A stretch of DNA of 24,445 bases, taken from NCBI GenBank assembly GCA_044870765.1, contig JBIOZG010000007.1, forward strand, positions 1 through 24,445, given 5' to 3'. Shown here in pieces: positions 1 to 23,095 of this stretch. The notes under the pieces are model-generated. The model made no database searches, was not told the DNA's origin, and worked only from the letters and a program-made list of their open reading frames with translations. A program made the position numbers and the translations under genes. The DNA comes from Nitrososphaeraceae archaeon. GTDB lineage: Archaea > Thermoproteota > Nitrososphaeria > Nitrososphaerales > Nitrososphaeraceae. Within the stretch, counting starts at the first letter, position 1, and the number at the start of each line of letters is the position of its first letter.

Positions 1-127
1 CGCAGCAATCCAATGTTTCAGAGGCTCCAATTGATACCACGCAGCAATCCAATGTTTCAGAGGCTCCAATTGATACCACGCAGCAATCCAATGTTTCAGA
101 GGCTCCAATTGATACCACGCAGCAATC
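1..127 (+). repeat. Perfect 39-bp coding tandem repeat, at least 3.25 copies, truncated by the window edge
   Basis: cgcagcaatccaatgtttcagaggctccaattgatacca at 1-39, 40-78 and 79-117, partial copy at 118-127; no spacers. Confidence 0.97.
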
Positions 128-488
128 AAAGTTGCTTGTCGCGATTTTGCCACTAAAAAATCCAGTGGCAAGAGGTGATAGCCAAAACGCAACAATAATT
201 GTTACCAATTCGCATAATAGGCCAATAGCCAATGCGCAAATTGATGGAAAATTAATTTATCCCGGAAATAATTTTGAGAAGGAATTTAAAGGAATCACGG
301 ATTTAGACGGGAAATTTGTATATTCCTGGACCGTCGGCAAGAAGGGCGACATAGGACCACTCGTCATGGAGGTAAAAGCGTCAAGTCAAGGATACCCACC
401 GGCATCGGCCAATACTTCAATTGAATTGGTAAAATCAGGCGAATCCTCCCAAATTGAAAATCCATTCCAAAGCCTCCAGAGACCTTGA
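3..488 (+). CDS. 5'-truncated probable surface/secreted protein: 13-aa repeats (QQSNVSEAPIDTT) followed by a beta-rich, Ig-like C-terminal domain
   Basis: The frame of track ORF 132..488 is open back to the window start. The repeat region translates as QQSNVSEAPIDTT x3. The C-terminal part (ATIIVTNS..PIANAQIDGKLIY..GITDLDGKFVYSWTVG) looks like an Ig-like beta-sandwich. Confidence 0.7.
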   Translation, partial: QQSNVSEAPIDTTQQSNVSEAPIDTTQQSNVSEAPIDTTQQSKLLVAILPLKNPVARGDSQNATIIVTNSHNRPIANAQIDGKLIYPGNNFEKEFKGITDLDGKFVYSWTVGKKGDIGPLVMEVKASSQGYPPASANTSIELVKSGESSQIENPFQSLQRP

Positions 489-1459: not shown

Positions 1460-1618
1460 TTAGTCGGTTATTTGTTTGTGGCCATTATCTAATTTATTAG
1501 GTATATACGCCACAAATTGAGTAAGTTGACAAGTAGCCCCGGTAGAGAGTGCACTACGAGATGTACATTTAAGTGTACGGCTATCAATGACTAGTTGTGG
1601 GTCAGAAACGGGGTACAT
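1460..1618 (-). CDS. Alternative small ORF, 52 aa (MYPVSDPQLVIDSRTLKCTSRSALSTGATCQLTQFVAYIPNKLDNGHKQITD); candidate YcaO substrate
   Basis: ATG at 1618 preceded by AGGAAG. Lies 58 bp downstream of, and co-oriented with, the NHLP-like gene. Exactly antisense and codon-aligned with the 25-aa + strand ORF. Confidence 0.3.
   Translation of the reverse strand: MYPVSDPQLVIDSRTLKCTSRSALSTGATCQLTQFVAYIPNKLDNGHKQITD
1517..1594 (+). CDS. Candidate Cys/Thr-rich RiPP-like peptide, 25 aa (MSKLTSSPGRECTTRCTFKCTAIND)
   Basis: TTG start, TAG stop. Three Cys-Thr pairs at 4-residue spacing use different synonymous codons (tgc act / tgt aca / tgt acg). TATA-like TTTATTA at 1493-1499. Confidence 0.4.
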   Translation: MSKLTSSPGRECTTRCTFKCTAIND

Positions 1619-1676
1619 TTATCTTCCTACTAACTGATTAACCTAAATTTCTTGAATGAATCTAATCCACTCTAAT

Positions 1677-1853
1677 CTAAATTTTCAGTTCATTAAAAAA
1701 TTTCAAAACTAGAATTTTTGCATTATCTGTTACATCATATTTCTCCAAGGTTTTTTTAGGGTTTTTAAAAAATTCTATTCTAAACTCAGGGTCCGAATGG
1801 GCCAAATGAACAATATCACTTAAGGCCTTTGAATCGTTAGCAGTATATTCCAA
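1677..1853 (-). CDS. NHLP-clan (nitrile hydratase leader peptide-like) small protein, 58 aa, no evident core peptide
   Basis: Hand translation: MEYTANDSKALSDIVHLAHSDPEFRIEFFKNPKKTLEKYDVTDNAKILVLKFFNELKI*. The A-x-x-DPEFR-x2-FF-x-NP-x3-L-x2-Y pattern matches the NHLP-leader signature. Divergent from ycaO across 76 bp; shorter than any ORF in the track. Confidence 0.75.
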   Translation of the reverse strand: MEYTANDSKALSDIVHLAHSDPEFRIEFFKNPKKTLEKYDVTDNAKILVLKFFNELKI

Positions 1854-1929
1854 GTTATCTATCTATGTTATTTTCCGGTATTTCTAACTTTAGTAAAATT
1901 GATATTGATACCTAATATTCAAATCTGCT
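1854..1929. promoter_or_regulatory. Probable bidirectional promoter between the NHLP-like gene and ycaO
   Basis: 76-bp gap with a central AT-rich TTTAGTAAAA (1889-1898) lying about 30-40 bp from both start codons. Confidence 0.4.
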
Positions 1930-3252
1930 ATGGAGCTTGAGCCAATATTGCTCAGAAGCCAGATGAAATTGAAAGGTAAAGTATCATCCAGAACAAAATC
2001 AGTAGAGGAGACTCTAAGTACCATCCTTCCAGTTTCTCGAGATATTGGAATAACACGTCTTGCAGATATAACGGATATGGATGTTCTAGGGATACCGAAT
2101 TTTTCAGCTGTTTTGCCTGGTACCGAGGATTATATTTGGGTTTATAGTGGAAAGGGTTCTACTAAGTTGGATGCAATGGCAAGCGCATTGATGGAAAGTG
2201 TTGAGAGATATAGTTCCCTGCCATCTAATAATCAAAAAAATATGATTCAAGGATCTTTCAAGGACGTTTCAAAAATGTCAAACACGCTTTATCCTACTAG
2301 TGTAGTTGAACCAACGTTATTTGAATACGATGAAGAGATGATTATGGATTTCCTACCCGGTTACGATTTGATACAAAATGAGCAGATTCTAATCCCTGCT
2401 CCCCTCGCATTATTTAGGTACACTCCAATACCCCCAGCAGTAAATCCATTTGCATATCATCATACTAATGGTCTTGCCTCAGGGAACGTGTTAGAGGAGG
2501 CGATTTGTCATTCACTATGTGAAGTTATTGAGAGAGATGCCACGAGTCTGGCAGAATTAAATTCAAGTGCATTACCATATAGTATTCTAAGATCAATAAC
2601 AAAATATTTGTCAGACAATGGAATACAAATAAATCCTGTAGATGGTAAAGAATTCGTAGATAACGATTTCAATTATCCCGATGTTGAAATTTCAAATATT
2701 GATTTTAAACCTGTCGCAGACCTGGCAAGGAAATTTAATGATGCAAATATACCACTTATAATTAAGGACATTACGTCGCCTATTGGAGTACCAACATTTA
2801 ATGCAAGTAGTATTGAATGGATTACTGAAGATTATGGATATCTTGCAGAAGGTCATGGAACCCATCCTGATGCAAGAATAGCTTTGTTGAGAGCAATCAC
2901 CGAAGTTTCACAAACTCGTGCCGCAAATATTCAGGGGGCAAGAGATGATCTCCGAAAAATCTCCTATGGCAACAGCAATAGTGATGAAAAAAAGACGTGG
3001 CAATTCATGAAATCAAAAAATTGTGTTCAATTCTCAGAAATAAAATCTTATGTTTATGATGACATTTTGGATGATATTAAATTTATTCTTTCAAGGTTAA
3101 CTTCAATCGGCTTAAACCAGGTAATAGTAGTTGATCTCACAAATCCTAAAATTATGATCCCTGTTGTTAGAACAATAGTACCTGGGCTTGAAACATTCAA
3201 GATAACCAAAGCCGTCATCGGAAAAAGAGGCAGGGAATTGTACAGAATATGA
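1930..3252 (+). CDS. ycaO: YcaO-family enzyme, TfuA-associated (thioamide-forming class)
   Basis: Motifs GKG..ASALMESVERYS, TNGLASGN..EEA..SLCEVIERDA and AITEVSQTRAANIQGARDDL. No Pro-rich PxP C-terminus of azoline-forming YcaOs. Overlaps tfuA by ATGA. Confidence 0.95.
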   Translation: MELEPILLRSQMKLKGKVSSRTKSVEETLSTILPVSRDIGITRLADITDMDVLGIPNFSAVLPGTEDYIWVYSGKGSTKLDAMASALMESVERYSSLPSNNQKNMIQGSFKDVSKMSNTLYPTSVVEPTLFEYDEEMIMDFLPGYDLIQNEQILIPAPLALFRYTPIPPAVNPFAYHHTNGLASGNVLEEAICHSLCEVIERDATSLAELNSSALPYSILRSITKYLSDNGIQINPVDGKEFVDNDFNYPDVEISNIDFKPVADLARKFNDANIPLIIKDITSPIGVPTFNASSIEWITEDYGYLAEGHGTHPDARIALLRAITEVSQTRAANIQGARDDLRKISYGNSNSDEKKTWQFMKSKNCVQFSEIKSYVYDDILDDIKFILSRLTSIGLNQVIVVDLTNPKIMIPVVRTIVPGLETFKITKAVIGKRGRELYRI

Positions 3253-3908
3253 ATCAACCAATAGTATTTCTCGGGCCTACTCTAGGTAGAGAAGAGGCAA
3301 TTAAGATATTAGATGCAGAATATCGAGATCCTGCAAAGAAAGGTGATTTTTTGAGATTATCGCAGGCAACTGATGAAAGAAAATCTATAGGATTTATAGA
3401 TGGAGTATTCTTGCACGATTATCCGCCATCGCCTATTGAAGTATACCATCTAGCCACAAGAAAAAACATCGAACTAATTGGCGCGTCCAGTCTAGGCGCA
3501 TTAAGAGCAGTGGAATTAGAAAAATTTGGAATGAAAGGAATCGGCAAGATTTTTCAATTGTACAAGAATGGTACCATAAATGCTGACGATGAAGTAGCAG
3601 TTACTTTTGTCCGAGATAAAAACATCCTCCAGTCGGAGGCCATGATCGACATTCGGTTCAATCTTTTTTTGGCGTATAAAAAGGGAATTATCCGCAGAGA
3701 ATCCAAAATAATGCTTGCAAAGGTCGCAAAGAATATTTATTTTCCATACCGAAATTATGAAGATATCATAAAGCTGACCCAACAGCGATTTCCATCAATT
3801 CATGACGAAGTTGAAAAGTTTAGATCTTATATTATGAAAAATAGAGACAGCCTAAAAGCTCGTGATGCAATAAAACTCTTGAAATATCTGAAAACTACAA
3901 CGGAATAA
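3249..3908 (+). CDS. tfuA: TfuA-like protein
   Basis: VFLGPTL, PAKKGD, IDGVF, GASSLGALRAVEL..FGMKGIG and DDEVAV motifs; translationally coupled to ycaO. Confidence 0.95.
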   Translation: MNQPIVFLGPTLGREEAIKILDAEYRDPAKKGDFLRLSQATDERKSIGFIDGVFLHDYPPSPIEVYHLATRKNIELIGASSLGALRAVELEKFGMKGIGKIFQLYKNGTINADDEVAVTFVRDKNILQSEAMIDIRFNLFLAYKKGIIRRESKIMLAKVAKNIYFPYRNYEDIIKLTQQRFPSIHDEVEKFRSYIMKNRDSLKARDAIKLLKYLKTTTE

Positions 3909-3946
3909 ATATGTGAAATAAGTTGGTTTGCAGAAAATAAATATCA

Positions 3947-4801
3947 TTATTCTGCTGAGAGATCCCAGAAATTCGCGTCCTTAAATTCTTCAATGGGTTT
4001 CCCTAATTTTTTCCATTCTTTAAATGATCTTGAGTATAATCTTATTTTTTTAACTCCACCCATTCTCAGTGCATAGTATGCAAGTCCTGACAGCGTTCCA
4101 ACACTTCCACAGTATGTGATAATCTCGTCATCTGCTGAGATCCCTCTGTTTTCCATAAATCTCTTGATTTCTTGAGGCTCCCTCAATATAGAATCAGCTG
4201 TTCCTAACATTGTATACGGTAAATTAGTAGCACCTGGAATATGCTCGCTCAAAAAATTTAGGCGTTCTCTTGAATCTACTAAAATCTTATTTTGTTCACT
4301 TTTTACCTTCTCTACCTCATCGTAACTAGCAAATATTTCGTCATTTACTTTGAGCGAATGCTTAGCGGGTGCAAATACATTAACTTTTTTTTCTGTTTCA
4401 AATCCATAACTTTTCCATTTGGTAAAAGTTGTTTCGAGTAAGGAAGTGTTCGAATGCCCTACATACTGAAATGTCCATGCAACTCTCGCAGCAAGGGCGC
4501 CAAAAGTATCATCATAAACTACAACCGGAGTTTTATCGGAAATTCCTAACTGTTCTAAAAGATGAACGATTCTTTCTGGAGAATCATTTTCAAGCACTTT
4601 TGCAAGTGGAAGAGACACTGCCGTTTTGATATGTTCTCTTCTGTATTCATCCTCTTTCCTGACATCTACAACTCTTACTGAATTTTTCCTAATCAAAGTT
4701 CTAAGAATATCTGAACTTGTTACAACATCATGTGCGTTGCTGAGCTCATGATCCCTTGATAGAATATTTTTAGTTTTTTTTTCCCTAGTATTGTATTTCA
4801 A
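3947..4801 (-). CDS. Two-domain rhodanese / sulfurtransferase
   Basis: VVDVR..EY..EHI, VVVYDD and LVDSR..F..EHIPGA motifs, catalytic Cys in ITYCGSVGT. Start placed at TTG 4801, overlapping the upstream stop as TTGA (track starts at 4810). Confidence 0.9.
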   Translation of the reverse strand: MKYNTREKKTKNILSRDHELSNAHDVVTSSDILRTLIRKNSVRVVDVRKEDEYRREHIKTAVSLPLAKVLENDSPERIVHLLEQLGISDKTPVVVYDDTFGALAARVAWTFQYVGHSNTSLLETTFTKWKSYGFETEKKVNVFAPAKHSLKVNDEIFASYDEVEKVKSEQNKILVDSRERLNFLSEHIPGATNLPYTMLGTADSILREPQEIKRFMENRGISADDEIITYCGSVGTLSGLAYYALRMGGVKKIRLYSRSFKEWKKLGKPIEEFKDANFWDLSAE

Positions 4802-6627
4802 GCTGCACACTCTCCTTTTGCTGTTTTTGCACTAAATTTTATATCGTTACCATAGTCCATGTAGGCATCTGGATCCTCTTCGGCACTCGGTAATGAAATT
4901 ATCGACATCAAAACTGTTTTTATATCATCCAAATTCTTTATTTGACTTTTGACATTAACTGCACCATTAATCAGTTTACCTATCCACACCGAAAGAGATT
5001 CGTTTTCACTTCGTTCTTTTCTGTATATTTCAATTATTTTTGTCAAAGTAGGTATGACTCGTTTAGCTGGCACACGCATTACCGTTCTACCCAACAGCCC
5101 ATCTTCCCCGTCTCTACCTCCAAACATCATCGTATATGTTGGAGTCATAGTTCCCCCTATTCTTGATGCTCCTCCATAGAATCCGATAGTTGCAATTTCA
5201 TGCTGTCCACATGAATTTGGACATCCGCTTATTTTGATTGTTGAGTCCCTTAGATCATCCGCTGTATCCAATCCGAGTTCAATGAATTTCGATTGTATTT
5301 CTTTTGCGAGTCTGTGAGAATTGGTGATTGCTAGATTACAAGAAGTAGTACCAGAACATCCAACCGCTGACGACATTGTTAGTGCCCCGGGATTTGCAAG
5401 TCCAATTTTAGCAAGATCGTTGTAAAATTCTGGCAAGTCTTTGGCTTTAATGAACCGGATTGCAAAATTTTGATTCGGAGTATTTCTTGCACAACCTTCA
5501 CCAGAGTAATCACGAATAGTCTTTGCAAGCGACCGAAGCTGACTAGCCGTTATATCACCGGCGCCCAGAGTAATAAAGACAACAAAGTAACCATTTTGCT
5601 TCTGCGAGACAACATTTGTATGAAGCCATCTTTTATACGGGTCGCTATTAACATCCACTTTTTCATTAATTAGTGGTAATTTCTTACCATTGAGTAATTG
5701 CCTCATATTCTGCGGTTCCGTTTCCACTTTGTATCTACCTAGCGTCTCAAGTGAAACCGTCATCTCCACATTTGATCTTTCTTTAATCACCAATTTCTGG
5801 AATTTTTCCCAGCCCATTTCATTTACGAGGTATCTCATTCTATTTCTAGCCATATTTTCTCGATTCCCAAGTCTATCAAATAGCCTAACCACTGCCATAC
5901 ATGTTGATACTAGTCTAACTTCCGAAGTAAATTCTTCCAATTGGTGTCCTAAAAACGACGCCGCTCCAAGACCTCCTCCCAAGTAAATCTTGAATCCATT
6001 GTTTCCATCTTTTTTTGAGGGAATTAAACCGATATCTGCGATCCTAACTAAACCGTGTTGAGAGCAACATGAAAAGTTGATTTTGAATTTTCTTGGCAAA
6101 TTCTGGCATACTGGATTTCTGAGAAAGAATCGGGCGATTGCTTTTGCATAAGGAGTCGAATCAAATTCTTCGTCCAAACAGACCCCTGCAAATTGGCTAC
6201 ACATAACATTCCTGACTGTGTTTCCACAGGCTTCTCTTGTCGTGAGTCCTACCTCAACGAGACCACGCATTACCTCGCTTACATCTTCAAGCTGTACCCA
6301 GTGAAGTTGAATGTTTTGACGAGTCGAAACATGAGCAGAACCTATTGAAAATGCTTCTGACAGCGACGCAATCTTCTCTAATTGTTCCGGAGTCATTTCG
6401 CCGCTAGGTACCTTGATTCTTACCATGCTATAATTCTGCTGAAGACGGGATCCATATGCTCCGTGTTGAAGTCGAAAACGGCGAAAATCATCTTCGCTTA
6501 TCTTTCCCTTTCTAAAAAGTTTCACATTTTGACCAAAAATCTCAGTTTCTTCCTCTTTTCCCCACTTCGGGGTGGATTTTGGAGAAATTTGCTTTTTATC
6601 AGGATAATTTAGAACTTCTCTTTTCAA
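4798..6627 (-). CDS. sir: Ferredoxin-dependent sulfite/nitrite reductase (siroheme-[4Fe-4S]), probably the assimilatory sulfite reductase
   Basis: STRQNIQLH, ACGNTVRN and LPRKFK motifs; cluster ligands in GCSGTTSCNLA and SGCPNSCGQH. Coupling to a rhodanese favours a sulfur role. Confidence 0.88.
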   Translation of the reverse strand: MKREVLNYPDKKQISPKSTPKWGKEEETEIFGQNVKLFRKGKISEDDFRRFRLQHGAYGSRLQQNYSMVRIKVPSGEMTPEQLEKIASLSEAFSIGSAHVSTRQNIQLHWVQLEDVSEVMRGLVEVGLTTREACGNTVRNVMCSQFAGVCLDEEFDSTPYAKAIARFFLRNPVCQNLPRKFKINFSCCSQHGLVRIADIGLIPSKKDGNNGFKIYLGGGLGAASFLGHQLEEFTSEVRLVSTCMAVVRLFDRLGNRENMARNRMRYLVNEMGWEKFQKLVIKERSNVEMTVSLETLGRYKVETEPQNMRQLLNGKKLPLINEKVDVNSDPYKRWLHTNVVSQKQNGYFVVFITLGAGDITASQLRSLAKTIRDYSGEGCARNTPNQNFAIRFIKAKDLPEFYNDLAKIGLANPGALTMSSAVGCSGTTSCNLAITNSHRLAKEIQSKFIELGLDTADDLRDSTIKISGCPNSCGQHEIATIGFYGGASRIGGTMTPTYTMMFGGRDGEDGLLGRTVMRVPAKRVIPTLTKIIEIYRKERSENESLSVWIGKLINGAVNVKSQIKNLDDIKTVLMSIISLPSAEEDPDAYMDYGNDIKFSAKTAKGECAA

Positions 6628-6779
6628 TACTATATTAATTCATTTTTCAAAACCATATATTTTTTATGGATATAACTATTTTTGGCAATTTAGACGCATT
6701 AACCGGTAATTTACTCCGTTTTAAATATGCTCAACCAAACGATAAATTCAGTGTCCAAAAATTGCCCGATTGGAGAGAA

Positions 6780-6854
6780 TGGATGGGGAGAGATTTGAAC
6801 TCTCGACCACCTGTGTGTGAGACAGGTATCATAACCAGCCTAGACCACCCATCC
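6780..6854 (-). tRNA. tRNA-Val(CAC), intronless, CCA not encoded
   Basis: Acceptor stem GGATGGG/CCCATCC plus discriminator A; anticodon arm CCTGT-CTCACAC-ACAGG; T arm GAGAG-TTCAAAT-CTCTC. Confidence 0.97.
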
Positions 6855-6904
6855 CAAATTTTATTATTATTTTCCCAATTAATATCTTGATGAATATTTG
6901 ATCG

Positions 6905-6921
6905 AGGTAAGTCACTTACCT
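6905..6921. promoter_or_regulatory. Perfect 8-1-8 palindrome, possible protein-binding site
   Basis: AGGTAAGT-C-ACTTACCT, about 50 bp upstream of the tRNA gene. Confidence 0.4.
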
Positions 6922-7075
6922 GAATTGGTAATAAAGTAAAGTTAAAAATCATTTCAAAGAGATGTAGAAACCAAGATAGAATAGAACCAGAAAAAAATTA
7001 GGACCGTTATGAAGAAATTAAAAAAAGGAAATATTGTTACATTAATGGCAGAGTCAGTAAATAAATTATTAAAAA

Positions 7076-7115
7076 CTGATGGGCCAAGTCTTATCCAATC
7101 AAAATGGCCCATCAG
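7076..7115. repeat. Perfect 11-bp inverted repeat with 18-nt spacer
   Basis: CTGATGGGCCA (7076-7086) and TGGCCCATCAG (7105-7115). Confidence 0.85.
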
Positions 7116-7403
7116 GTGGTGTCAATTTTTGCTATGAGTAGTCCATCACAAGACATTGACAAAGGAGAAGAGTATGCACGATGTGAACCCTCCAATTTCA
7201 ATATCCGTGGTTGGTAATTTCCATATCTGAAATAGAATAATTAAGATTTCAGGATCTAATTTAAGCAATAGTTAAGAACTAGTGGGCTAAGATGGCAATG
7301 AATTACTGATCCACCAGAACTTGAAGCGCGGTTTACGTTATTTAGTCATGATAAATAAATTATAGAAAAGTAAAACCTTGTAGAAAACTTAACCTCAAGA
7401 CCC

Positions 7404-8008: not shown

Positions 8009-9256
8009 TTACGTCCCTTCGCTAAAGCCGGTCAAATAAGTGTGTTGATCCTCAGTAAGGGTATCTATATTAATGTCCATTGATTCCAATTTTGCTTTTG
8101 CTATTTGTTGATCCTGCGACCTCTCGATATCATATACTGCAGGAGATAACGATCCTTTTAGTTGAATCAGTTTAATCGCTGAAAGAAGTTGGTTGGCAAA
8201 GCTCATATCCATTACCTCTGATGGATGTCCTTCAGCGGCGACAAGGTTGACTAATCTTCCTTCTCCTATGAGATATAGTTTGTTTCCTTTCTTAAGTTCA
8301 TACTCTGTTGTATTCTGATTAATCTGTTTTACCTTAACCGAGCTTGATTTGAGTGTGTCAATTGAAATTTCCACATTGAAATGTCCTGCATTAGCTAGTA
8401 TAGTTCCATTTTTCATTTTCAAGAAGTGTTCCTCTCTTATTACATTCTTGCATCCTGTTGTAGTAATGAACAAGTCCCCAGTCATTGCCGCAGAAGCCAT
8501 TGGTAAAACGGAGTATCCGTCCAGTTTTGCTTTCAACGCTGCAATTGGTTCAATTTCAGTTATTATTACATTAGCTCCCAGTCCTGCAGCTCTTCTTGCA
8601 ATACCTTTTCCGACGTGTCCGTATCCTGAGACAACTACATTCTTTCCTGAAATCAGTATGTTAGTAGCTCTGATTATGCCGTCTAGGGCTGACTGACCTG
8701 TTCCATAAACATTGTCAAAATCATGTTTTGTTTCAGCATCGTTGACGGCCATTATCGGATATTTGAGTTTACCATTCTTTTCCATCGCTCGTAATCTAAC
8801 AACTCCAGTTGTTGTTTCTTCTGTACCGCCATAGACCTCAGATAAATTTCCCGAGTTATGCATTTCCACAGTAAGATCGGCTCCATCATCAATTGTAACG
8901 TTTGGTTTAATTCCCATTGCTGAACGAATATCATCATAGTATTGTTCGTTTGAAACTCCTCTGCTAGCATATATTGAGACTCCTTCGTCTACTAGTGCCG
9001 CGGCAACATCGTCTTGCGTGCTCAAAGGATTGCAACCACACCAAGTTAAGTCAGCGCCCAAATCCCGCAGCGTGCGTATTAACACTCCAGTCTCTTTAGT
9101 AACATGGAGACATCCCGCAAATTTAATACCCTTTAAGGGACTCTTGGCCAGTAATTTTTTTTTAAGATTGAGCAATACTGGCATATGCACCTGCGCCCAG
9201 TCGATTTTTCTCTTCCCTTCTTCAGCTAATTTTGGGTCTTTAATTCTGTAATTCAT
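8009..9256 (-). CDS. ahcY: Adenosylhomocysteinase
   Basis: GCLHVTKET, CNPLSTQD, DDGADL, EETTTGV, KHDFDNVYGTGQS and GHPSEVMDMSFANQ motifs. Confidence 0.98.
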   Translation of the reverse strand: MNYRIKDPKLAEEGKRKIDWAQVHMPVLLNLKKKLLAKSPLKGIKFAGCLHVTKETGVLIRTLRDLGADLTWCGCNPLSTQDDVAAALVDEGVSIYASRGVSNEQYYDDIRSAMGIKPNVTIDDGADLTVEMHNSGNLSEVYGGTEETTTGVVRLRAMEKNGKLKYPIMAVNDAETKHDFDNVYGTGQSALDGIIRATNILISGKNVVVSGYGHVGKGIARRAAGLGANVIITEIEPIAALKAKLDGYSVLPMASAAMTGDLFITTTGCKNVIREEHFLKMKNGTILANAGHFNVEISIDTLKSSSVKVKQINQNTTEYELKKGNKLYLIGEGRLVNLVAAEGHPSEVMDMSFANQLLSAIKLIQLKGSLSPAVYDIERSQDQQIAKAKLESMDINIDTLTEDQHTYLTGFSEGT

Positions 9257-9453
9257 TCATCTCTGTGATATTTCCGAGACATATTATTCTTGCACCTCCA
9301 TCAAAATTATGGGAGTTAACTCTCGATTCCATTCTTAAAATGCTCACAAAAGCGAAACGAGTTGAAATTTTCTTTATTAGGCTTAATATTGCATCAATAA
9401 AATCGTCAAACTAATATCATGATAAATATATGAATTAGTTTATCGAGAAAACG

Positions 9454-9972
9454 ATGAAAAGGCTTCAGATTGCAGTTATAGGATATAATCAGGATAAATC
9501 AAATGAGATAACAAACAAAATAGCATATGAGGTAGGAACCGAGATTGCAAAGGCAAATGCAGTATTACTCTCCGGCGGTCTTGGCGGCGTCATGGAAAAT
9601 GCCTGCAAGGGTGCAAAGGAACAGGGAGGATTGACGGTAGGGATTATTCCTCAGGAAGAGGCGCGGTTTGCAAACAAATTCTGTGATGTAGTTATTGCAA
9701 CAGGAATAGGCTACGCCAGAGATTTTATGGTAGCATCATCAGCAGATGGCATTATCGCTGTAGGCGGCGGCGTTGGTACCTTGATAGAACTTTGCGTGGG
9801 ATACATGCTAAAAAAAATATTGGTAACAATACCCAGCAGTGGAGGTACTGCTGAAAACTATGGCGGAAGGTATCTGGATGACAGAAAGCGAGTCTTCATA
9901 CGGACTTCAGACAATGCGCGCTCTGCAGTTAAAGATATTTTAGACTACTTTGAATCAAATCAACAATCCTAG
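9454..9972 (+). CDS. LOG-like / TIGR00725-type Rossmann-fold protein
   Basis: SGGLGGVME..CKGA...GGLTVGIIP, TGIGYARD and GGGVGTLIEL motifs. Confidence 0.88.
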   Translation: MKRLQIAVIGYNQDKSNEITNKIAYEVGTEIAKANAVLLSGGLGGVMENACKGAKEQGGLTVGIIPQEEARFANKFCDVVIATGIGYARDFMVASSADGIIAVGGGVGTLIELCVGYMLKKILVTIPSSGGTAENYGGRYLDDRKRVFIRTSDNARSAVKDILDYFESNQQS

Positions 9973-9998
9973 TCCGTTACAATTGTTGAAGAACCGAC

Positions 9999-11144
9999 TT
10001 ATTTTAAAAGAGTGACGAGGTAAGGGTCTGGAGTATAAAATGATTCATTTCCTTTTTTCAATTGATTCAGAGTATTTATTATATTCTCAAACCCGTACTC
10101 TTTTCCTATCTCAAAAAGCTCCTTTTTAAGCCCCATTCCCAATCTCAGCGCCAATTCAAGATCCTCTTTATTGCACACTTTATTCGTGATAAGCCATGAC
10201 GCATTGTTTAATGCGACTGATAACATCCTAATTGGGTCATATTGTTTTGCTTCCTCTTCCGATAACGGAACCCTTTCATAATTCTTGTCCCCATAGGAAT
10301 AGAAGCCATCTCCTGATTTTTTGCCAAGTTTTCCTGATGAAAATAATTGTGCAATCATAGGGTGGGGATGTATTACTTTCTTATCTCGAGAGTACATTTC
10401 AACAGTCGCTTTGTGAATAACATCGATTCCAGTATAGTCTGCTAATTCAAAAATTCCCATTGGTAGAAACAATTTAAATTTAACGGCTGAATCAATTTGT
10501 GTCATAGTTTTGCCATCACTTTCTAGGCAGTATGCTGCTTCATGGACTAGCGGTATGAATATTCTATTTACAATAAATCCTGGAACGTCTTTATTACATA
10601 AAATAGGATCTTTCCCAAATGATTTTACCAGCTTGATTCCGAGGTCTACAATCGATTTCTCAGTTCTTGCTCCTGGAATTACCTCAACTAATTTCATAAG
10701 TTGTGGAGGATTAAAGAAATGTAATCCGATAAATCTGTCAGGTCTACTTGTTAATTGAGATATTTCACTGATTGGTAATGTACTTGTATTCGATGCATAC
10801 ACAGTTTTTTCTTCAGCAAATTGATCCACTTCTGAATATACCTTCTTCTTAAGATTTAGATCTTCTGGAACAGCTTCGATAAGTAAGTCAGTATCAATTA
10901 ATGCATCCTTTAGGTCCACAATCGGTTTTATTCTTCCATAAATCTTATCAGATTCTTCCTTTTTTATCTTGTTTTTTTCAACGAGCTTATCAAGCGACCA
11001 TTTTATTTTATCCATTGCACTGTCTAAGAACTTCTGTTCTATATCACGGAGCACGACTTGATATCCATTCATTGCGGAAATCTGTGCAATTCCGTGCCCC
11101 ATAATTCCTGAACCTAAAACTGTGATTTTATTTAATTGTGGCAA
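9999..11144 (-). CDS. 3-hydroxyacyl-CoA (3-hydroxybutyryl-CoA) dehydrogenase
   Basis: VLGSGIMGHGIAQ, EAVPEDL..K, ASNTSTL, GLHFFNP..LMKLVEV and PGFIVNR motifs. Confidence 0.95.
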   Translation of the reverse strand: MPQLNKITVLGSGIMGHGIAQISAMNGYQVVLRDIEQKFLDSAMDKIKWSLDKLVEKNKIKKEESDKIYGRIKPIVDLKDALIDTDLLIEAVPEDLNLKKKVYSEVDQFAEEKTVYASNTSTLPISEISQLTSRPDRFIGLHFFNPPQLMKLVEVIPGARTEKSIVDLGIKLVKSFGKDPILCNKDVPGFIVNRIFIPLVHEAAYCLESDGKTMTQIDSAVKFKLFLPMGIFELADYTGIDVIHKATVEMYSRDKKVIHPHPMIAQLFSSGKLGKKSGDGFYSYGDKNYERVPLSEEEAKQYDPIRMLSVALNNASWLITNKVCNKEDLELALRLGMGLKKELFEIGKEYGFENIINTLNQLKKGNESFYTPDPYLVTLLK

Positions 11145-11257
11145 CGGTACTACTTCAAAAATTCATGATTTTTAATGTTTACGATTGTATTCGTAATATT
11201 AATTCAATATACTCGAAACTGTTTTATTGATATTACAATATCATATAGAAACAACAG

Positions 11258-11788
11258 TTGATACGATGCTTTGCGCTTTTGCTAAATCAAGATGATCCGA
11301 AAAAATGCAGCGCATTGAAATTGATAAAATTTGGTGCCGTTTTACCCACTAAATCCATACAACATAGTATGCTTGTCTTAAATCCTTTTGCAAATGTAGT
11401 AATTTGTAAAATTGATAAGACATTGGTCGAATCTATATGCGTAATTGATTGTTCTTGGAACAGGGCACAAGGAGTATTGACAAATTACAAATATTTGAGA
11501 AAGGGAATTCCAAGAAGAATACCCGGACTGTTGGCGGGAAACCCAATCAACTATGCTAGGCTAGGCAGACTATCAAGCGTTGAATCCTTATCAGCTTCTT
11601 ATTACATACTTGGAGAAAAGGAATATGCGCGATTACTACTAAATAAATTCAAGTGGGGTCATACATTTCTTGAATTAAACCATGACGCATTGGAAGATTA
11701 CTCTGCAGCCGAGGACAGAAAGGAAATATTTGATATTGAATCACAATATTTTGGAAATTATGTTTTAGAAAACGAGGGTGAGCCCTAA
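11258..11788 (+). CDS. tsr3: SSU rRNA aminocarboxypropyltransferase Tsr3 (DUF367)
   Basis: QDDPKKCSALKL, IDCSW, LLAGNPINY, LSSVE and FKWGHTFLELN motifs. Confidence 0.93.
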   Translation: MIRCFALLLNQDDPKKCSALKLIKFGAVLPTKSIQHSMLVLNPFANVVICKIDKTLVESICVIDCSWNRAQGVLTNYKYLRKGIPRRIPGLLAGNPINYARLGRLSSVESLSASYYILGEKEYARLLLNKFKWGHTFLELNHDALEDYSAAEDRKEIFDIESQYFGNYVLENEGEP

Positions 11789-11880
11789 ATTGTATTATCA
11801 CAAGTCTTCTGATTTTCTGTCAATTGCATGCTATGGTTCCTTTCCTTGGTATTAATCAAGTTATTGAGGTGAGTAGGTCT

Positions 11881-12339
11881 TTAAAATGTAAAAAAACTAG
11901 TCTGTTCTCTGTCTCTATCTCTGTCTCTACTCAACAAGAGCCATTCTATTATTCTGTCCAAACTATCGCTGATTATTGTAACCTTGATAGGCCCTAGCGG
12001 AGATTCTTCATAATCCTCAACCAATGATATCACATCTTCATATGCGGCTTGTTTGTTGAGTAGAAACCAGGTGAGATTTCCTTTCCTATTCCATTCTAAT
12101 AATTTTCTCAAAACACCCAAGGTTGACTTTGATCTAACTCCAACTCTGATATGGTGTAGTGAAAGAATCCCGGCGCAAGTGGCTTCGATGTGTCCATCTG
12201 AAAGTATGGGGTTGCATCCATTAGCAATATTTAACAGACATTTTTTTACCTTTTCTGGATCTTCGGAAGGATTTAGAACTGTTTCTACTTTGAGCTTCAC
12301 ATTCTCATTTTGAATATCACCACTATTCTTTTCTACCAA
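11881..12339 (-). CDS. Archaeal UPF0201/DUF54 putative RNA-binding protein
   Basis: NPSEDPEKV, LNKQAA and ESPLGPIKVTI motifs; usual neighbour of the adjacent P-loop kinase. Confidence 0.85.
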   Translation of the reverse strand: MVEKNSGDIQNENVKLKVETVLNPSEDPEKVKKCLLNIANGCNPILSDGHIEATCAGILSLHHIRVGVRSKSTLGVLRKLLEWNRKGNLTWFLLNKQAAYEDVISLVEDYEESPLGPIKVTIISDSLDRIIEWLLLSRDRDRDREQTSFFTF

Positions 12340-12349
12340 TTATTACCAA

Positions 12350-12940
12350 CTACTTTCTTCGAGTTCCACTTTCTTGCATCCATTTTTGGACCGTAGTGAG
12401 ACTCTGTTCACACAATTGCGATATTGTAATGTCGTTGTTAGATATAGTCTCGTCAGCCAATGCTATGGCGTTACTTATTCCCACTTCCATCTCAGTCTTA
12501 TCCCGTTTGTCAAATTCATCAATGTTAGAAGGAACGTCAGAACGATGTCTTTCCTTAACATGAGTGTACCTCGTGAAAGTCGATCCATGGATAGCCAACA
12601 ATTTGATATTTCCGGTGTCTTTAAGAACCTCTACTTCTGCCATGCTTCTAATTCCATCAACTATAACTACGTTCAACTTGTTGTCCTCTTTTCTCATTAA
12701 ATTAATTTTATTGGCAATCAAATGTGCAACTGCGCCTGGTCCATTCTTCTTTCGAAGTTTTATCATCAAATTTGCAAGGTTGTCGCTTGTGGGCGCCAAT
12801 CCTTGGCTCTCTGCAGCTTCTCTTATTACATCACCCATAATCAAAAGTGGGATGCCCGTATGATGCAGATAGTTTGCAACCGTAGTCTTACCAGCGCCTG
12901 GCATCCCGGTTAGAGCTACGATTAGAATATCCCTTGACAT
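12350..12940 (-). CDS. P-loop nucleotide-kinase-like protein (UPF0200 / dephospho-CoA-kinase-like)
   Basis: Walker A LTGMPGAGKTT, plus MGDVIRE, VDGIRS..E and F..RD..E..VG motifs. Confidence 0.85.
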   Translation of the reverse strand: MSRDILIVALTGMPGAGKTTVANYLHHTGIPLLIMGDVIREAAESQGLAPTSDNLANLMIKLRKKNGPGAVAHLIANKINLMRKEDNKLNVVIVDGIRSMAEVEVLKDTGNIKLLAIHGSTFTRYTHVKERHRSDVPSNIDEFDKRDKTEMEVGISNAIALADETISNNDITISQLCEQSLTTVQKWMQESGTRRK

Positions 12941-19706: not shown

Positions 19707-20852
19707 TTACATCTTGAATAACTTTGATTTGTCAGTTTTCTCCCATGAAAAATCAGGATCGTTTCTGCCAAAATGACCATACGCTGCAGTTTTCTTATAA
19801 ATCGGTCTTTTCAATCGTAACATCTCTATTATTCCTAGAGGCGTAGTATCAAAAATCTCTCTAACTTGAGTTTCAATTTTTTCTTCATTAATTTTTCCAG
19901 TGTTAAATGTATCTACCATGATGGAAACAGGTTCAGCCACTCCTATTGCATACGCCAGTTGTACTTCGCATTTTGAAGCCAGGCCTGATGAAACAATATT
20001 TTTCGCTATATATCTCGCCATATAGCAAGCAGATCTATCAACCTTTGAAGGATCCTTTCCTGAAAATGCTCCTCCTCCATGTCTGCCCATACCTCCATAT
20101 GTGTCAGCTATAATCTTTCGCCCAGTCAATCCGGTATCGCCCACAGGACCACCTATGACAAATCTTCCTGTAGGATTTACAAGAAACTTTGTAGACTTAT
20201 TTATTAGATCGTCACAAATTGGTTTTATTACCTTTGAAATAATCTCTTCTCTCACCTGAGATATTGATACATCTTCCGTATGCTGAGTCGATACAACAAC
20301 TGTCTCAATATTCTTTGGAACCGCATCTTCATAAATAACAGATACCTGAGATTTTCCGTCTGGTCCTATCCAATCCAAAGTTCCTTTCTTTCTTACCGCT
20401 GCTAATCTCATAGTCAATTTGTGGGCCAAAGTTATGGGTAATGGCATAAGTTCGGGGGTTTCGCTTGTTGCGTATCCAAACATTAATCCTTGATCCCCTG
20501 CTCCCTGAACTCCATCCTCATTTTTAGAAACACCCATTGAAATGTCTGGGCTTTGTTCATGGATTGAAGTTAGAACAGCACAGCTGTTTCCGTCAAATCC
20601 ATGTTTTAGTCCATCGTACCCGATATTTCTTACAGTTCTTCTAACAACGTCCTGCGCATCAAATTTTGCCGTGGACGTCACTTCGCCAGCTACAAACACT
20701 ATTCCGGTAGTAGTCATGGCTTCCACCGCAACTCTGGAATCTGGATCCTGGGAAATTATTTCGTCAAGTATTGAATCAGAAACTTGATCGCAAATCTTGT
20801 CAGGATGTCCTTCGGTTACACTTTCTGAAGTAAAAAGATAGCGCCCAGCCAT
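19707..20852 (-). CDS. metK: S-adenosylmethionine synthetase, bacterial/eukaryotic type
   Basis: [19 protein letters not shown] and [16 protein letters not shown] motifs. Confidence 0.98.
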
Positions 20853-22283: not shown

Positions 22284-22613
22284 GTGGACAAACTAGAAAA
22301 ATTAATCAATATGCAAAGAAACCTCGCGACTGTTTTAGCTTCAACGCGTTATCCAACCAAGACTGAAGAAAGAATTTCATTTCTCTGCACTGCAATTACA
22401 CATGAAGCTGTAGAGTTGCAAAGGTTGACAAACTGGAAGTGGTGGAAAAAACCTACCGTTTTTAATGACGAAGAGGCCAAGGAAGAACTAATCGATATTT
22501 GGCATTTTGTACTTCAAGCAACTATTGAATTAAACATGACCGCCGATGACATTGTGAAGTACTATTCAAAAAAGAACAAGATAAACAAGAAAAGAAAAAA
22601 AATGAATTATTAA
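22284..22613 (+). CDS. All-alpha (dimeric-type) dUTPase / NTP pyrophosphatase
   Basis: E..EL, WKWWKK, EELIDIWHF and Y..KN..N..R motifs. Confidence 0.88.
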   Translation: MDKLEKLINMQRNLATVLASTRYPTKTEERISFLCTAITHEAVELQRLTNWKWWKKPTVFNDEEAKEELIDIWHFVLQATIELNMTADDIVKYYSKKNKINKKRKKMNY

Positions 22614-23095
22614 ATTATTCTTTCTATATACGATTTTACCCGGCTAAAATTTGTCTCTCCTATCAAATTGTGAATAGTACTTCGATTTCTAAAAGTCTGC
22701 ACATCTTCGTAGGATGAAACTAGAAAAGGATGTGGACTTTTTGCCGCAATAATTTTCCCTTCACTTGTAATTCCATAATTAAACAATGCAATTAACGAAT
22801 CACCAGCCATGTGACCGCTCACATCTTTTCCACATACGACTAGATGCATGAGATTCCTATTTGTGATACAGTAATGTATTACTTTATCTATTCCTTTGTT
22901 TTCAGAAAGTAATCTGCCAACTATGGCAACATTATCCATGAATTTAGTATCGTTTGAAATTTCGCTCAATAATTTGATACTAGACAAGGTACATATTGCG
23001 ATTGTACTTCCTCTCCCAAGATAATATTCATGCTTGATTGGAATCAAGTACTTACATAATTCTCCAAGATAGTTTTCAATTTTTTCATAAATCAA
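22610..23095 (-). CDS. Stand-alone soluble MtrA-like (corrinoid-binding) protein
   Basis: AICTLSS, AIVG.L.SENKGIDKVI, L..LVVCG.DV.GHMAGDSL.AL..G and KII.A....PFL match the MtrA fold. No C-terminal membrane helix. Confidence 0.85.
   Translation of the reverse strand: MIYEKIENYLGELCKYLIPIKHEYYLGRGSTIAICTLSSIKLLSEISNDTKFMDNVAIVGRLLSENKGIDKVIHYCITNRNLMHLVVCGKDVSGHMAGDSLIALFNYGITSEGKIIAAKSPHPFLVSSYEDVQTFRNRSTIHNLIGETNFSRVKSYIERII

Follow-up and report, generated by a model that had tools for sequence, protein, structure and literature searches.

A ycaO-tfuA pair and a small NHLP-clan protein in ammonia-oxidising archaea: a candidate three-part thioamidation module

A ycaO-tfuA pair in an ammonia-oxidising archaeon

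Which protein does a YcaO-TfuA pair modify in an archaeon that oxidises ammonia? The question is raised by a 24,445-nt stretch of DNA from a Nitrososphaeraceae archaeon (assembly GCA_044870765.1, contig JBIOZG010000007.1; hereafter the window), which encodes an adjacent ycaO and tfuA and, divergently upstream of them, a protein of 58 amino acids (aa). We propose, with the chances of being right or wrong about equal, that these genes form a lineage-specific thioamidation module of three parts in which the small protein is the substrate. A functional partnership between the small protein and YcaO is probable; for the small protein as the species that YcaO-TfuA modifies, the chances fall slightly short of even.

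The host (2.02-Mb genome, 96.65% complete) encodes archaeal AmoA (profile search of the genome, E 3.6e-119). The alpha subunit of methyl-coenzyme M reductase (MCR) was not found in the genome at this completeness, in a search that was positive in two control methanogens. Thus, as a sequence-only reading of the window had supposed, the host looks like an ammonia oxidiser without MCR; McrA therefore cannot be the substrate of its YcaO-TfuA, and a different one has to be sought. The window is AT-rich (GC 0.30-0.41), and its list of open reading frames (ORFs) holds six between positions 1460 and 6627.

The ycaO gene (1930-3252, + strand) encodes a 440-aa predicted ATP-dependent enzyme that activates backbone amides. 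It belongs to the YcaO superfamily (PF02624) with 237 bits against a gathering threshold of 25.7 (E 4.5e-70; model positions 1-325 of 325), and it is the only YcaO in the host genome. The adjoining tfuA (3249-3908, + strand) starts 4 nt before the end of ycaO and encodes a 219-aa protein, the predicted sulfur-delivery partner, with 115.6 bits against the TfuA model (PF07812; gathering threshold 30, E 1.4e-33). These full-length Pfam matches and the 4-nt overlap bear out the coupled pair of the earlier reading.

Both proteins find their best sequence and fold matches in the methanogen system that makes the McrA thioglycine, which has the same two enzymes in the same gene order. The closest NCBIfam models are TIGR03266 (McrA-glycine thioamidation) for YcaO, with 282.3 bits, and NF033432 (TfuA-related McrA-glycine thioamidation protein) for TfuA, with 203.6 bits, and both scores fall below the equivalog cut-offs (365 and 235.2, respectively). 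The nearest solved YcaO structures are those of Methanocaldococcus jannaschii (6pe3, 1.8e-38, and 6peu), on which an AlphaFold2 model of the window's YcaO superposes, outside residues 212-261, with target-normalised TM-scores of 0.86-0.89; TfuA matches PDB entry 6xp8 at 5.7e-26. Unlike in the methanogen system, MCR was not found here, YcaO carries a segment of 50 residues in place of 16, and a dedicated small partner co-occurs. Public annotation of the YcaOs of ammonia oxidisers (P0271-P0376) reads "thioglycine synthase" or "S12 methylthiotransferase accessory factor YcaO"; an organism without MCR makes both labels unsuitable, and so do the family scores obtained here.

Other characterised YcaO systems are further away. 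Escherichia coli YcaO, according to a passage in PMC13063428, thioamidates a cellular protein, uL16, rather than a secreted peptide, and it does so in a system without TfuA; the match of the window's YcaO to the corresponding model NF040716 is negligible (29.8 bits against a cut-off of 700). Bacterial thioamitide and other TfuA-related clusters for peptides made on the ribosome and modified post-translationally (RiPPs) have the adjacent YcaO-TfuA pair in common with this locus, which in contrast has no core-bearing precursor, tailoring enzymes or exporter.

The survey sample comprised 201 genomes of the class, the host's own included, of which 22 encode ycaO: the host and all 14 others of its family (f1), both genomes of family f5 and all five of family f3. 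The gene occurs in 0 of 114 genomes of a large sister family (f2) and in 0 of 65 across the remaining ten families. Names of homologous proteins suggest that f1 corresponds to Nitrososphaeraceae (Nitrososphaera, Nitrosocosmicus, Nitrosopolaris) and that f3 includes Nitrosocaldus. In all 21 ycaO loci of the class other than the window's, each covered with up to 8 kb on either side, tfuA follows directly after ycaO.

The presence of YcaO-TfuA in ammonia-oxidising archaea without MCR has been on record since 2017, when, in a passage of Nayak et al. (PMC5589413), the YcaOs of ammonia oxidisers were placed inside the methanogen clade. The pertinent passage of Malit et al. 2021 (PMC8120280) counts eight TfuA-related clusters in Thaumarchaeota and names no substrate. 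A full-text search of the main texts of papers for YcaO or TfuA in ammonia-oxidizing archaea, Thaumarchaeota or names beginning with Nitrososphaer returned these two papers and no named substrate; among the matches listed for TfuA together with NHLP, nothing concerned archaea.

The small gene divergent from ycaO

The 58-aa protein is encoded at 1677-1853 on the - strand, with a TTG start at 1853, and is separated from ycaO by a divergent intergenic region of 76 nt (1854-1929), presumed to hold a bidirectional promoter; a gap of 77-79 nt is kept in 12 of 12 genus-level loci. The frame is intact in all 13 genomes of the window's genus group (TTG start in 12, ATG in one) and is under purifying selection, the median pairwise ratio of nonsynonymous to synonymous substitution rates (dN/dS) being 0.14 over the 76 of 78 genus-group pairs with dS between 0.05 and 3. 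The small ORF is a real gene.

Its distribution follows that of ycaO. A profile of the family built from 18 aligned sequences (A2) matches at E <= 1.4e-19, with one copy per genome, in exactly the 22 of 201 genomes that encode ycaO. The 179 class genomes without ycaO gave no strong match, only two weak ones (1.4e-3 and 5.3e-3) that lie inside longer open frames. A homologue stands upstream of ycaO on the opposite strand within 1.5 kb in 16 of the 21 other class loci, and in 17 of them when up to 8 kb on each side is considered (hidden Markov model matches, E <= 2.8e-25). A wider set consists of 80 species-level loci with the small gene, whose names are all of the Nitrososphaerales type; 42 of them have ycaO divergently upstream of it, at gaps of 77-862 nt. 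At 90% identity the family falls into 744 clusters, and about 30 representatives remain at 50% identity (E <= 1e-10); every one of the 120 members listed is nameless or a "hypothetical protein".

Some neighbourhoods hold further genes. In f3, an SBF-type transporter gene stands between ycaO and the small gene in three of five loci, and all five, including one with ycaO elsewhere, have a BNR-repeat gene and a 213-aa gene behind the small gene; one of these loci (L046; neighbour features at 4751-7204, 9385-10353 and 10791-12852) has Opp-type ABC permease genes after tfuA. The BNR-repeat and 213-aa genes were rejected as parts of the module, as they are not behind the small gene in the window's family (one weak BNR match, in locus L095), and their linkage in f3 is treated as local synteny.

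Single-sequence searches place the small protein near the NHLP (nitrile hydratase-like leader peptide) clan, which includes the precursors of proteusin-type RiPPs. It scores 22.6 bits (E 8.3e-5) against NF038399 (Os1348 family NHLP clan protein; cut-off 40) and 18.8 bits (E 1.1e-3, model positions 5-35 of 77) against TIGR03793 (cut-off 50.9), and Pfam gave nothing beyond a chance match to Ubiquitin_5 (E 0.061). The family profile reaches further, matching nitrile hydratase alpha subunits (9.9e-8 and 1.7e-7) over a common helix-turn motif and the solved NHLP precursors 9cjx (3.2e-3) and 8tb1 (0.095). By profile comparison, then, the small protein belongs to the NHLP clan, and the divergent NHLP-clan neighbour described in the sequence-only reading is recovered, with sub-threshold matches for the single sequence and homology at the level of the profile.

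An AlphaFold2 model computed with the alignment shows four helices (residues 5-20, 22-30, 32-37 and 43-57) at a predicted local distance difference test (pLDDT) value of 92.5. Foldseek matches of this model include the precursor domain of the split borosin SonA (7ltr, 7lts, 9ch7; TM 0.62-0.67), the proteusin precursor 8tb1 (TM 0.49) and one dioxygenase C-terminal domain, with weak E-values throughout (0.57-3). SonA, among the best of these matches (E 1.6-2.6, weak), is a helical precursor domain that docks on its enzyme, the N-methyltransferase SonM, and so on an enzyme that is not a YcaO. SonA also carries a C-terminal core.

With the proteusin-type precursors (TIGR03793; 8tb1, 9cjx) the small protein has in common an N-terminal helical bundle resembling that of nitrile hydratase alpha, with the conserved A-x-x-x-P-E-F-R/K. 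In canonical NHLP, as described in part of PMC12537861, a three-helix bundle is followed by a beta-hairpin, a disordered tail and the core. The small protein, in contrast, is 53-62 aa long and all-helical, with a fourth helix in place of the beta-hairpin, disordered tail, Gly-Gly site and core, and it ends directly after helix 4, where a leader would continue into a cleavage site and a variable core. Most members stop right after ...S-I-x-D-L-x-Q, the Q being present in 105 of the 109 sequences extending to the final position of the profile (of 168 stored proteins, the 158 with at most 125 aa were aligned, and matches at E <= 1e-8 gave 148 distinct rows).

Haft in 2010 reportedly described paralogous precursors and a nearby exporter with a peptidase domain as features of the NHLP family. 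The small protein is archaeal and single-copy (22 of 22 genomes), and domain scans of the window agree with the earlier reading that it holds no protease or exporter: none was found among its genes, the rest of the window being housekeeping. It thus falls outside the NHLP leader family itself on each defining feature: score, cleavage site, core and paralogy. With no Gly-Gly site, no core, a single copy and neither protease nor exporter nearby, it is unlikely to be a classical exported RiPP. The NHLP-like neighbour, which the sequence-only reading took as pointing to a peptide pathway, remains the key lead through its co-occurrence (22 of 22 ycaO genomes against 0 of 179 with a strong match), adjacency and predicted complex with YcaO.

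A predicted complex and the role of the small protein

We co-folded YcaO and the small protein with an alignment of each (A3, 22 rows, and A2). Three runs gave an ipSAE (interaction prediction score from aligned errors) of 0.77, 0.78 and 0.78, and the best of three controls gave 0.00; among solved complexes 58 of 80 reach the mark, and among mismatched pairs 2 of 110, counts that are only rough here because our own alignments were used. The runs agree in at least 95% of contacts, with a pLDDT of at least 88 for the small protein. In the model, the confident interface comprises residues 216-247 plus 438 of YcaO, and residues 3-29 and 45-57 of the small protein, including the invariant or near-invariant A18, P22 and R25. 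We know of no similar solved complex; a score drawn from a memorised structure therefore seems unlikely.

The predicted docking surface falls in a lineage-specific segment of YcaO, residues 212-261 (2563-2712, + strand), delimited by the alignment gap to MJ1094, the AlphaFold2 model and the complex model. The segment has 50 residues, against 16 in the McrA-type MJ1094 of M. jannaschii, where the alignment breaks; it is modelled as a helix (215-229) followed by a loop and is present in 22 of 22 orthologues. It is also the fastest-evolving part of the protein, with 64% identity in a same-genus pair against 86% for the rest; in this pair, the interface positions of YcaO are 48% identical and the small proteins 42-43%. 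A comparable arrangement is described in a portion of PMC12537861, in which an NHLP leader engages its enzyme as a folded three-helix bundle gripped by an enlarged loop (34 residues in DprM, 16 in CylM). The small protein is predicted to dock likewise as a folded domain, and YcaO 212-261 would parallel, by analogy, the enlarged loop of DprM.

In the proposed module, which is carried by terrestrial and thermophilic ammonia-oxidising archaea, YcaO would activate a backbone amide with ATP, and TfuA would provide sulfide equivalents, whose probable source is a ThiS-type thiocarboxylate (the ThiS and ThiF genes lie elsewhere in the genome). The 53-62-aa four-helix protein would dock as a folded domain on the 50-residue segment of YcaO and, without a cleavable core, would be not an exported RiPP but an intracellular substrate on which a backbone thioamide is installed.

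Several observations weigh against this proposal. Of the 68 species loci that are informative, 26 have no ycaO beside the small gene despite at least 2.5 kb of upstream sequence, most of them under the name Nitrososphaera (the other 12 of the 80 are too short to tell), and the two genes are unlinked in 4 of the 21 class loci, with the small gene elsewhere in all four genomes (in G184, about 0.9 Mb from ycaO). The co-occurrence amounts to few independent events, three families having both genes and the sister family neither, and many lineage-specific genes would show the same pattern. Every single-sequence family score of the small protein lies under its curated cut-off, and the Foldseek E-values are weak, as given above. 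The 18 aligned small proteins lack a Gly-Gly site, a core and any conserved Gly or Cys, and either the fold or the predicted interface can account for every strongly conserved position. The complex, for its part, is a model and has, beyond YcaO residue 438, no confident contact outside 216-247; no segment of the partner is therefore shown reaching the ATP site, and the thioamide on the small protein is one that we infer. Transcript data lend weak support to expression of the locus: one contig from a soil RNA library covers 1579-2333, which holds the small gene and the start of ycaO, and contigs from four soil libraries of three studies lie on ycaO, on tfuA and on a conserved RNA element treated below (1515-1608), with no cover of 1000-1427 in four runs, although such contigs reveal no strand or level and may include carried-over DNA.

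Part of this would be expected if YcaO-TfuA thioamidated an unrelated protein and the small protein were a syntenic neighbour, for example a small regulator. Divergently transcribed small helical genes are often regulators, and the lack of linkage in the 26 loci and the sub-threshold family scores point the same way. We regard such a coincidence as improbable, however. Both genes occur in exactly the same 22 of 201 genomes, their divergent orientation is retained across three families, and the small protein is homologous to NHLP and nitrile hydratase alpha subunits rather than to DNA-binding folds. The predicted complex (0.78 against 0.00 in controls) falls, moreover, on a segment of YcaO that is specific to the clade.

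A second alternative accepts the partnership and moves the modification elsewhere. As a free-standing, leader-like subunit acting in trans, an unmodified small protein might bind YcaO and activate YcaO-TfuA, or direct the pair to another cellular protein, in analogy to McrA or ribosomal uL16. The small gene is retained even when far from ycaO, its product is the NHLP helical bundle alone, with no tail or core, and docking is predicted away from any active-site residues mapped by sequence, all of which would suit an adaptor. So would the size of known substrates, as the only two characterised protein thioamides sit on large proteins according to a section of PMC13063428. No second conserved neighbour turned up, though, in the 21 loci, which extend up to 8 kb to either side, and the exactly kept C-terminal ...D-L-x-Q (105 of 109) suggests that the small protein's own terminus matters. 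To our knowledge, no natural trans-acting NHLP domain has been described, though no search was aimed at one. We judge an adaptor role unlikely, if less so than coincidence, and retain as the preferred reading the module in which the small protein is itself the substrate.

A more specific version, which we think rather unlikely, has a free-standing, core-less NHLP leader plugging into the clade-specific loop of YcaO and licensing the thioamidation of itself or of a third protein of nitrifier metabolism. If so, protein backbone thioamidation would have its third case in biology, and this would be the first RiPP-like system with a split leader. Should the small protein or another nitrifier protein carry a thioamide, protein thioamidation would extend beyond MCR and uL16, and the NHLP fold would have a new, protein-like role. 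Bolder still is the idea of copper binding by the thioamidated small protein in these copper-dependent organisms; thioamide natural products bind copper. A specific 58-aa candidate partner and a docking segment on YcaO make the open question of the substrate experimentally testable.

A conserved RNA, the sulfur genes and other neighbours

The sequence-only reading had assembled a fuller RiPP system, with a tiny Cys/Thr peptide as precursor and a dedicated sulfur supply from a sulfite reductase-rhodanese operon. Both elements exist in the window, and the peptide has similar N-terminal counterparts in many relatives; we nevertheless consider such a system highly improbable. The neighbourhood survey of ycaO-tfuA loci that the same reading had proposed retains the 58-aa gene (beside ycaO in 17 of the 21 other class loci) and neither of these elements.

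The peptide would be encoded by a 52-aa ORF (1460-1618, - strand; no Pfam match), which lies antisense to a candidate conserved structured non-coding RNA of about 81 nt (1537-1617, + strand; covariance-model match at 1532-1624) that does not belong to the module. Over about 100 nt, the DNA beneath the ORF shares 95% identity with that of a same-genus relative, and it is 87% identical in a genus whose YcaO is only 60% identical. The RNA element is single-copy in 47 of 61 genomes of the family at 74-98% DNA identity (one of them, G225, is flagged unpublished). With a covariance model derived from 30 copies, 69 of 121 order genomes each gave a single match. The element does not keep company with ycaO: of 14 genomes sampled from the sister family, where ycaO was found in 0 of 114, 13 have it, and G120, G158 and G159 carry it on a different contig from the gene or at a distance of over 1 Mb.

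The conserved unit varies as an RNA and not as a reading frame. The element is 80-86 nt long, in steps that are not multiples of three, and within the window's own genus the antisense ORF shows frameshifts from member to member; on these grounds the ORF was rejected as a peptide. In an alignment of 33 sequences, 93.1% of cells pair and 9 of 16 pairs have changed on both sides, values that none of 500 shuffles reached and that slid controls fell far short of, in an alignment that was fitted to the covariance model and so favours structure. G-U pairs in the hairpin and a lower consensus folding energy indicate the + strand. The recurrence of an antisense open frame with a similar N-terminal peptide in many relatives is expected, because the conserved sequence happens to be stop-free in one frame. 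The 52-aa ORF is the antisense reading of a conserved non-coding RNA unrelated to ycaO; although present in the window, it is not conserved coding sequence.

The RNA itself is an unclassified conserved element. Its parts are a terminal stem of 5 bp with N-ACA behind it, a pair of GA-rich internal loops and a hairpin that varies. The terminal stem with a box one base past it (ACA in 26 of 30 copies, AUA in 4 of 30) agrees with H/ACA small RNAs (sRNAs), while the internal loops exceed the usual size of H/ACA pockets and the length of the 5' spacer differs by 2-4 nt among copies. An H/ACA-like or a K-turn sRNA would be a possible identity. No tRNA (ARAGORN) or Rfam match was found for the element, and a C/D-box sRNA was rejected by eye, there being no C box near the 5' end on either strand.

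The sulfur genes are a two-domain rhodanese (3947-4810, - strand; Pfam Rhodanese) and a NirA/Sir-type sulfite or nitrite reductase (4798-6627, - strand; NIR_SIR and NIR_SIR_ferr), which overlap by 13 nt and are convergent to ycaO-tfuA. The pair adjoins ycaO-tfuA in 1 of the 21 other class loci, the same-genus one, and in 9 of the 80 species loci, all of the window's genus group. In five of five complete genomes the two genes stay together and lie at least 298 kb from ycaO. The pair is an independent two-gene operon, separate from the thioamidation module, and probably serves assimilatory sulfite reduction; the operon is there as the sequence-only reading had it, but a role in supplying sulfur to YcaO does not hold, as the linkage is confined to the window's genus.

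That reading was right that the window encodes neither ThiS nor ThiF, though both are encoded on other contigs of the genome. One 455-aa open frame has ThiS and ThiF domains together (G000:C17:34310-35224, - strand), and a separate ThiS-family gene lies at G000:C43:73591-73821 (- strand). In the route reported in part of PMC13063428, TfuA hydrolyses a ThiS thiocarboxylate. The off-locus genes would fit this route and are candidate sulfur carriers for TfuA.

Other genes of the window lie on both sides of the locus. A 5'-open ORF at 1-488 (+ strand) starts with three tandem copies of a 13-aa unit and continues into a weak Big_1-like Ig domain (E 0.0044), and probably encodes a surface protein. 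It is followed by a 103-aa ORF (734-1045, + strand) with an N-terminal CxxC...CxxC pattern and no family match, for which no counterpart was found in the same-genus locus L028. At 22610-23095 (- strand) lies a gene for an MtrA-like protein (tetrahydromethanopterin S-methyltransferase subunit A family, E 3.9e-22), in a genome with a negative search for MCR. An AdoHcy hydrolase (8009-9256) and a MetK-type S-adenosylmethionine synthetase with three S-AdoMet_synt domains (19707-20852, - strand) place methyl-cycle genes on both sides of the locus.

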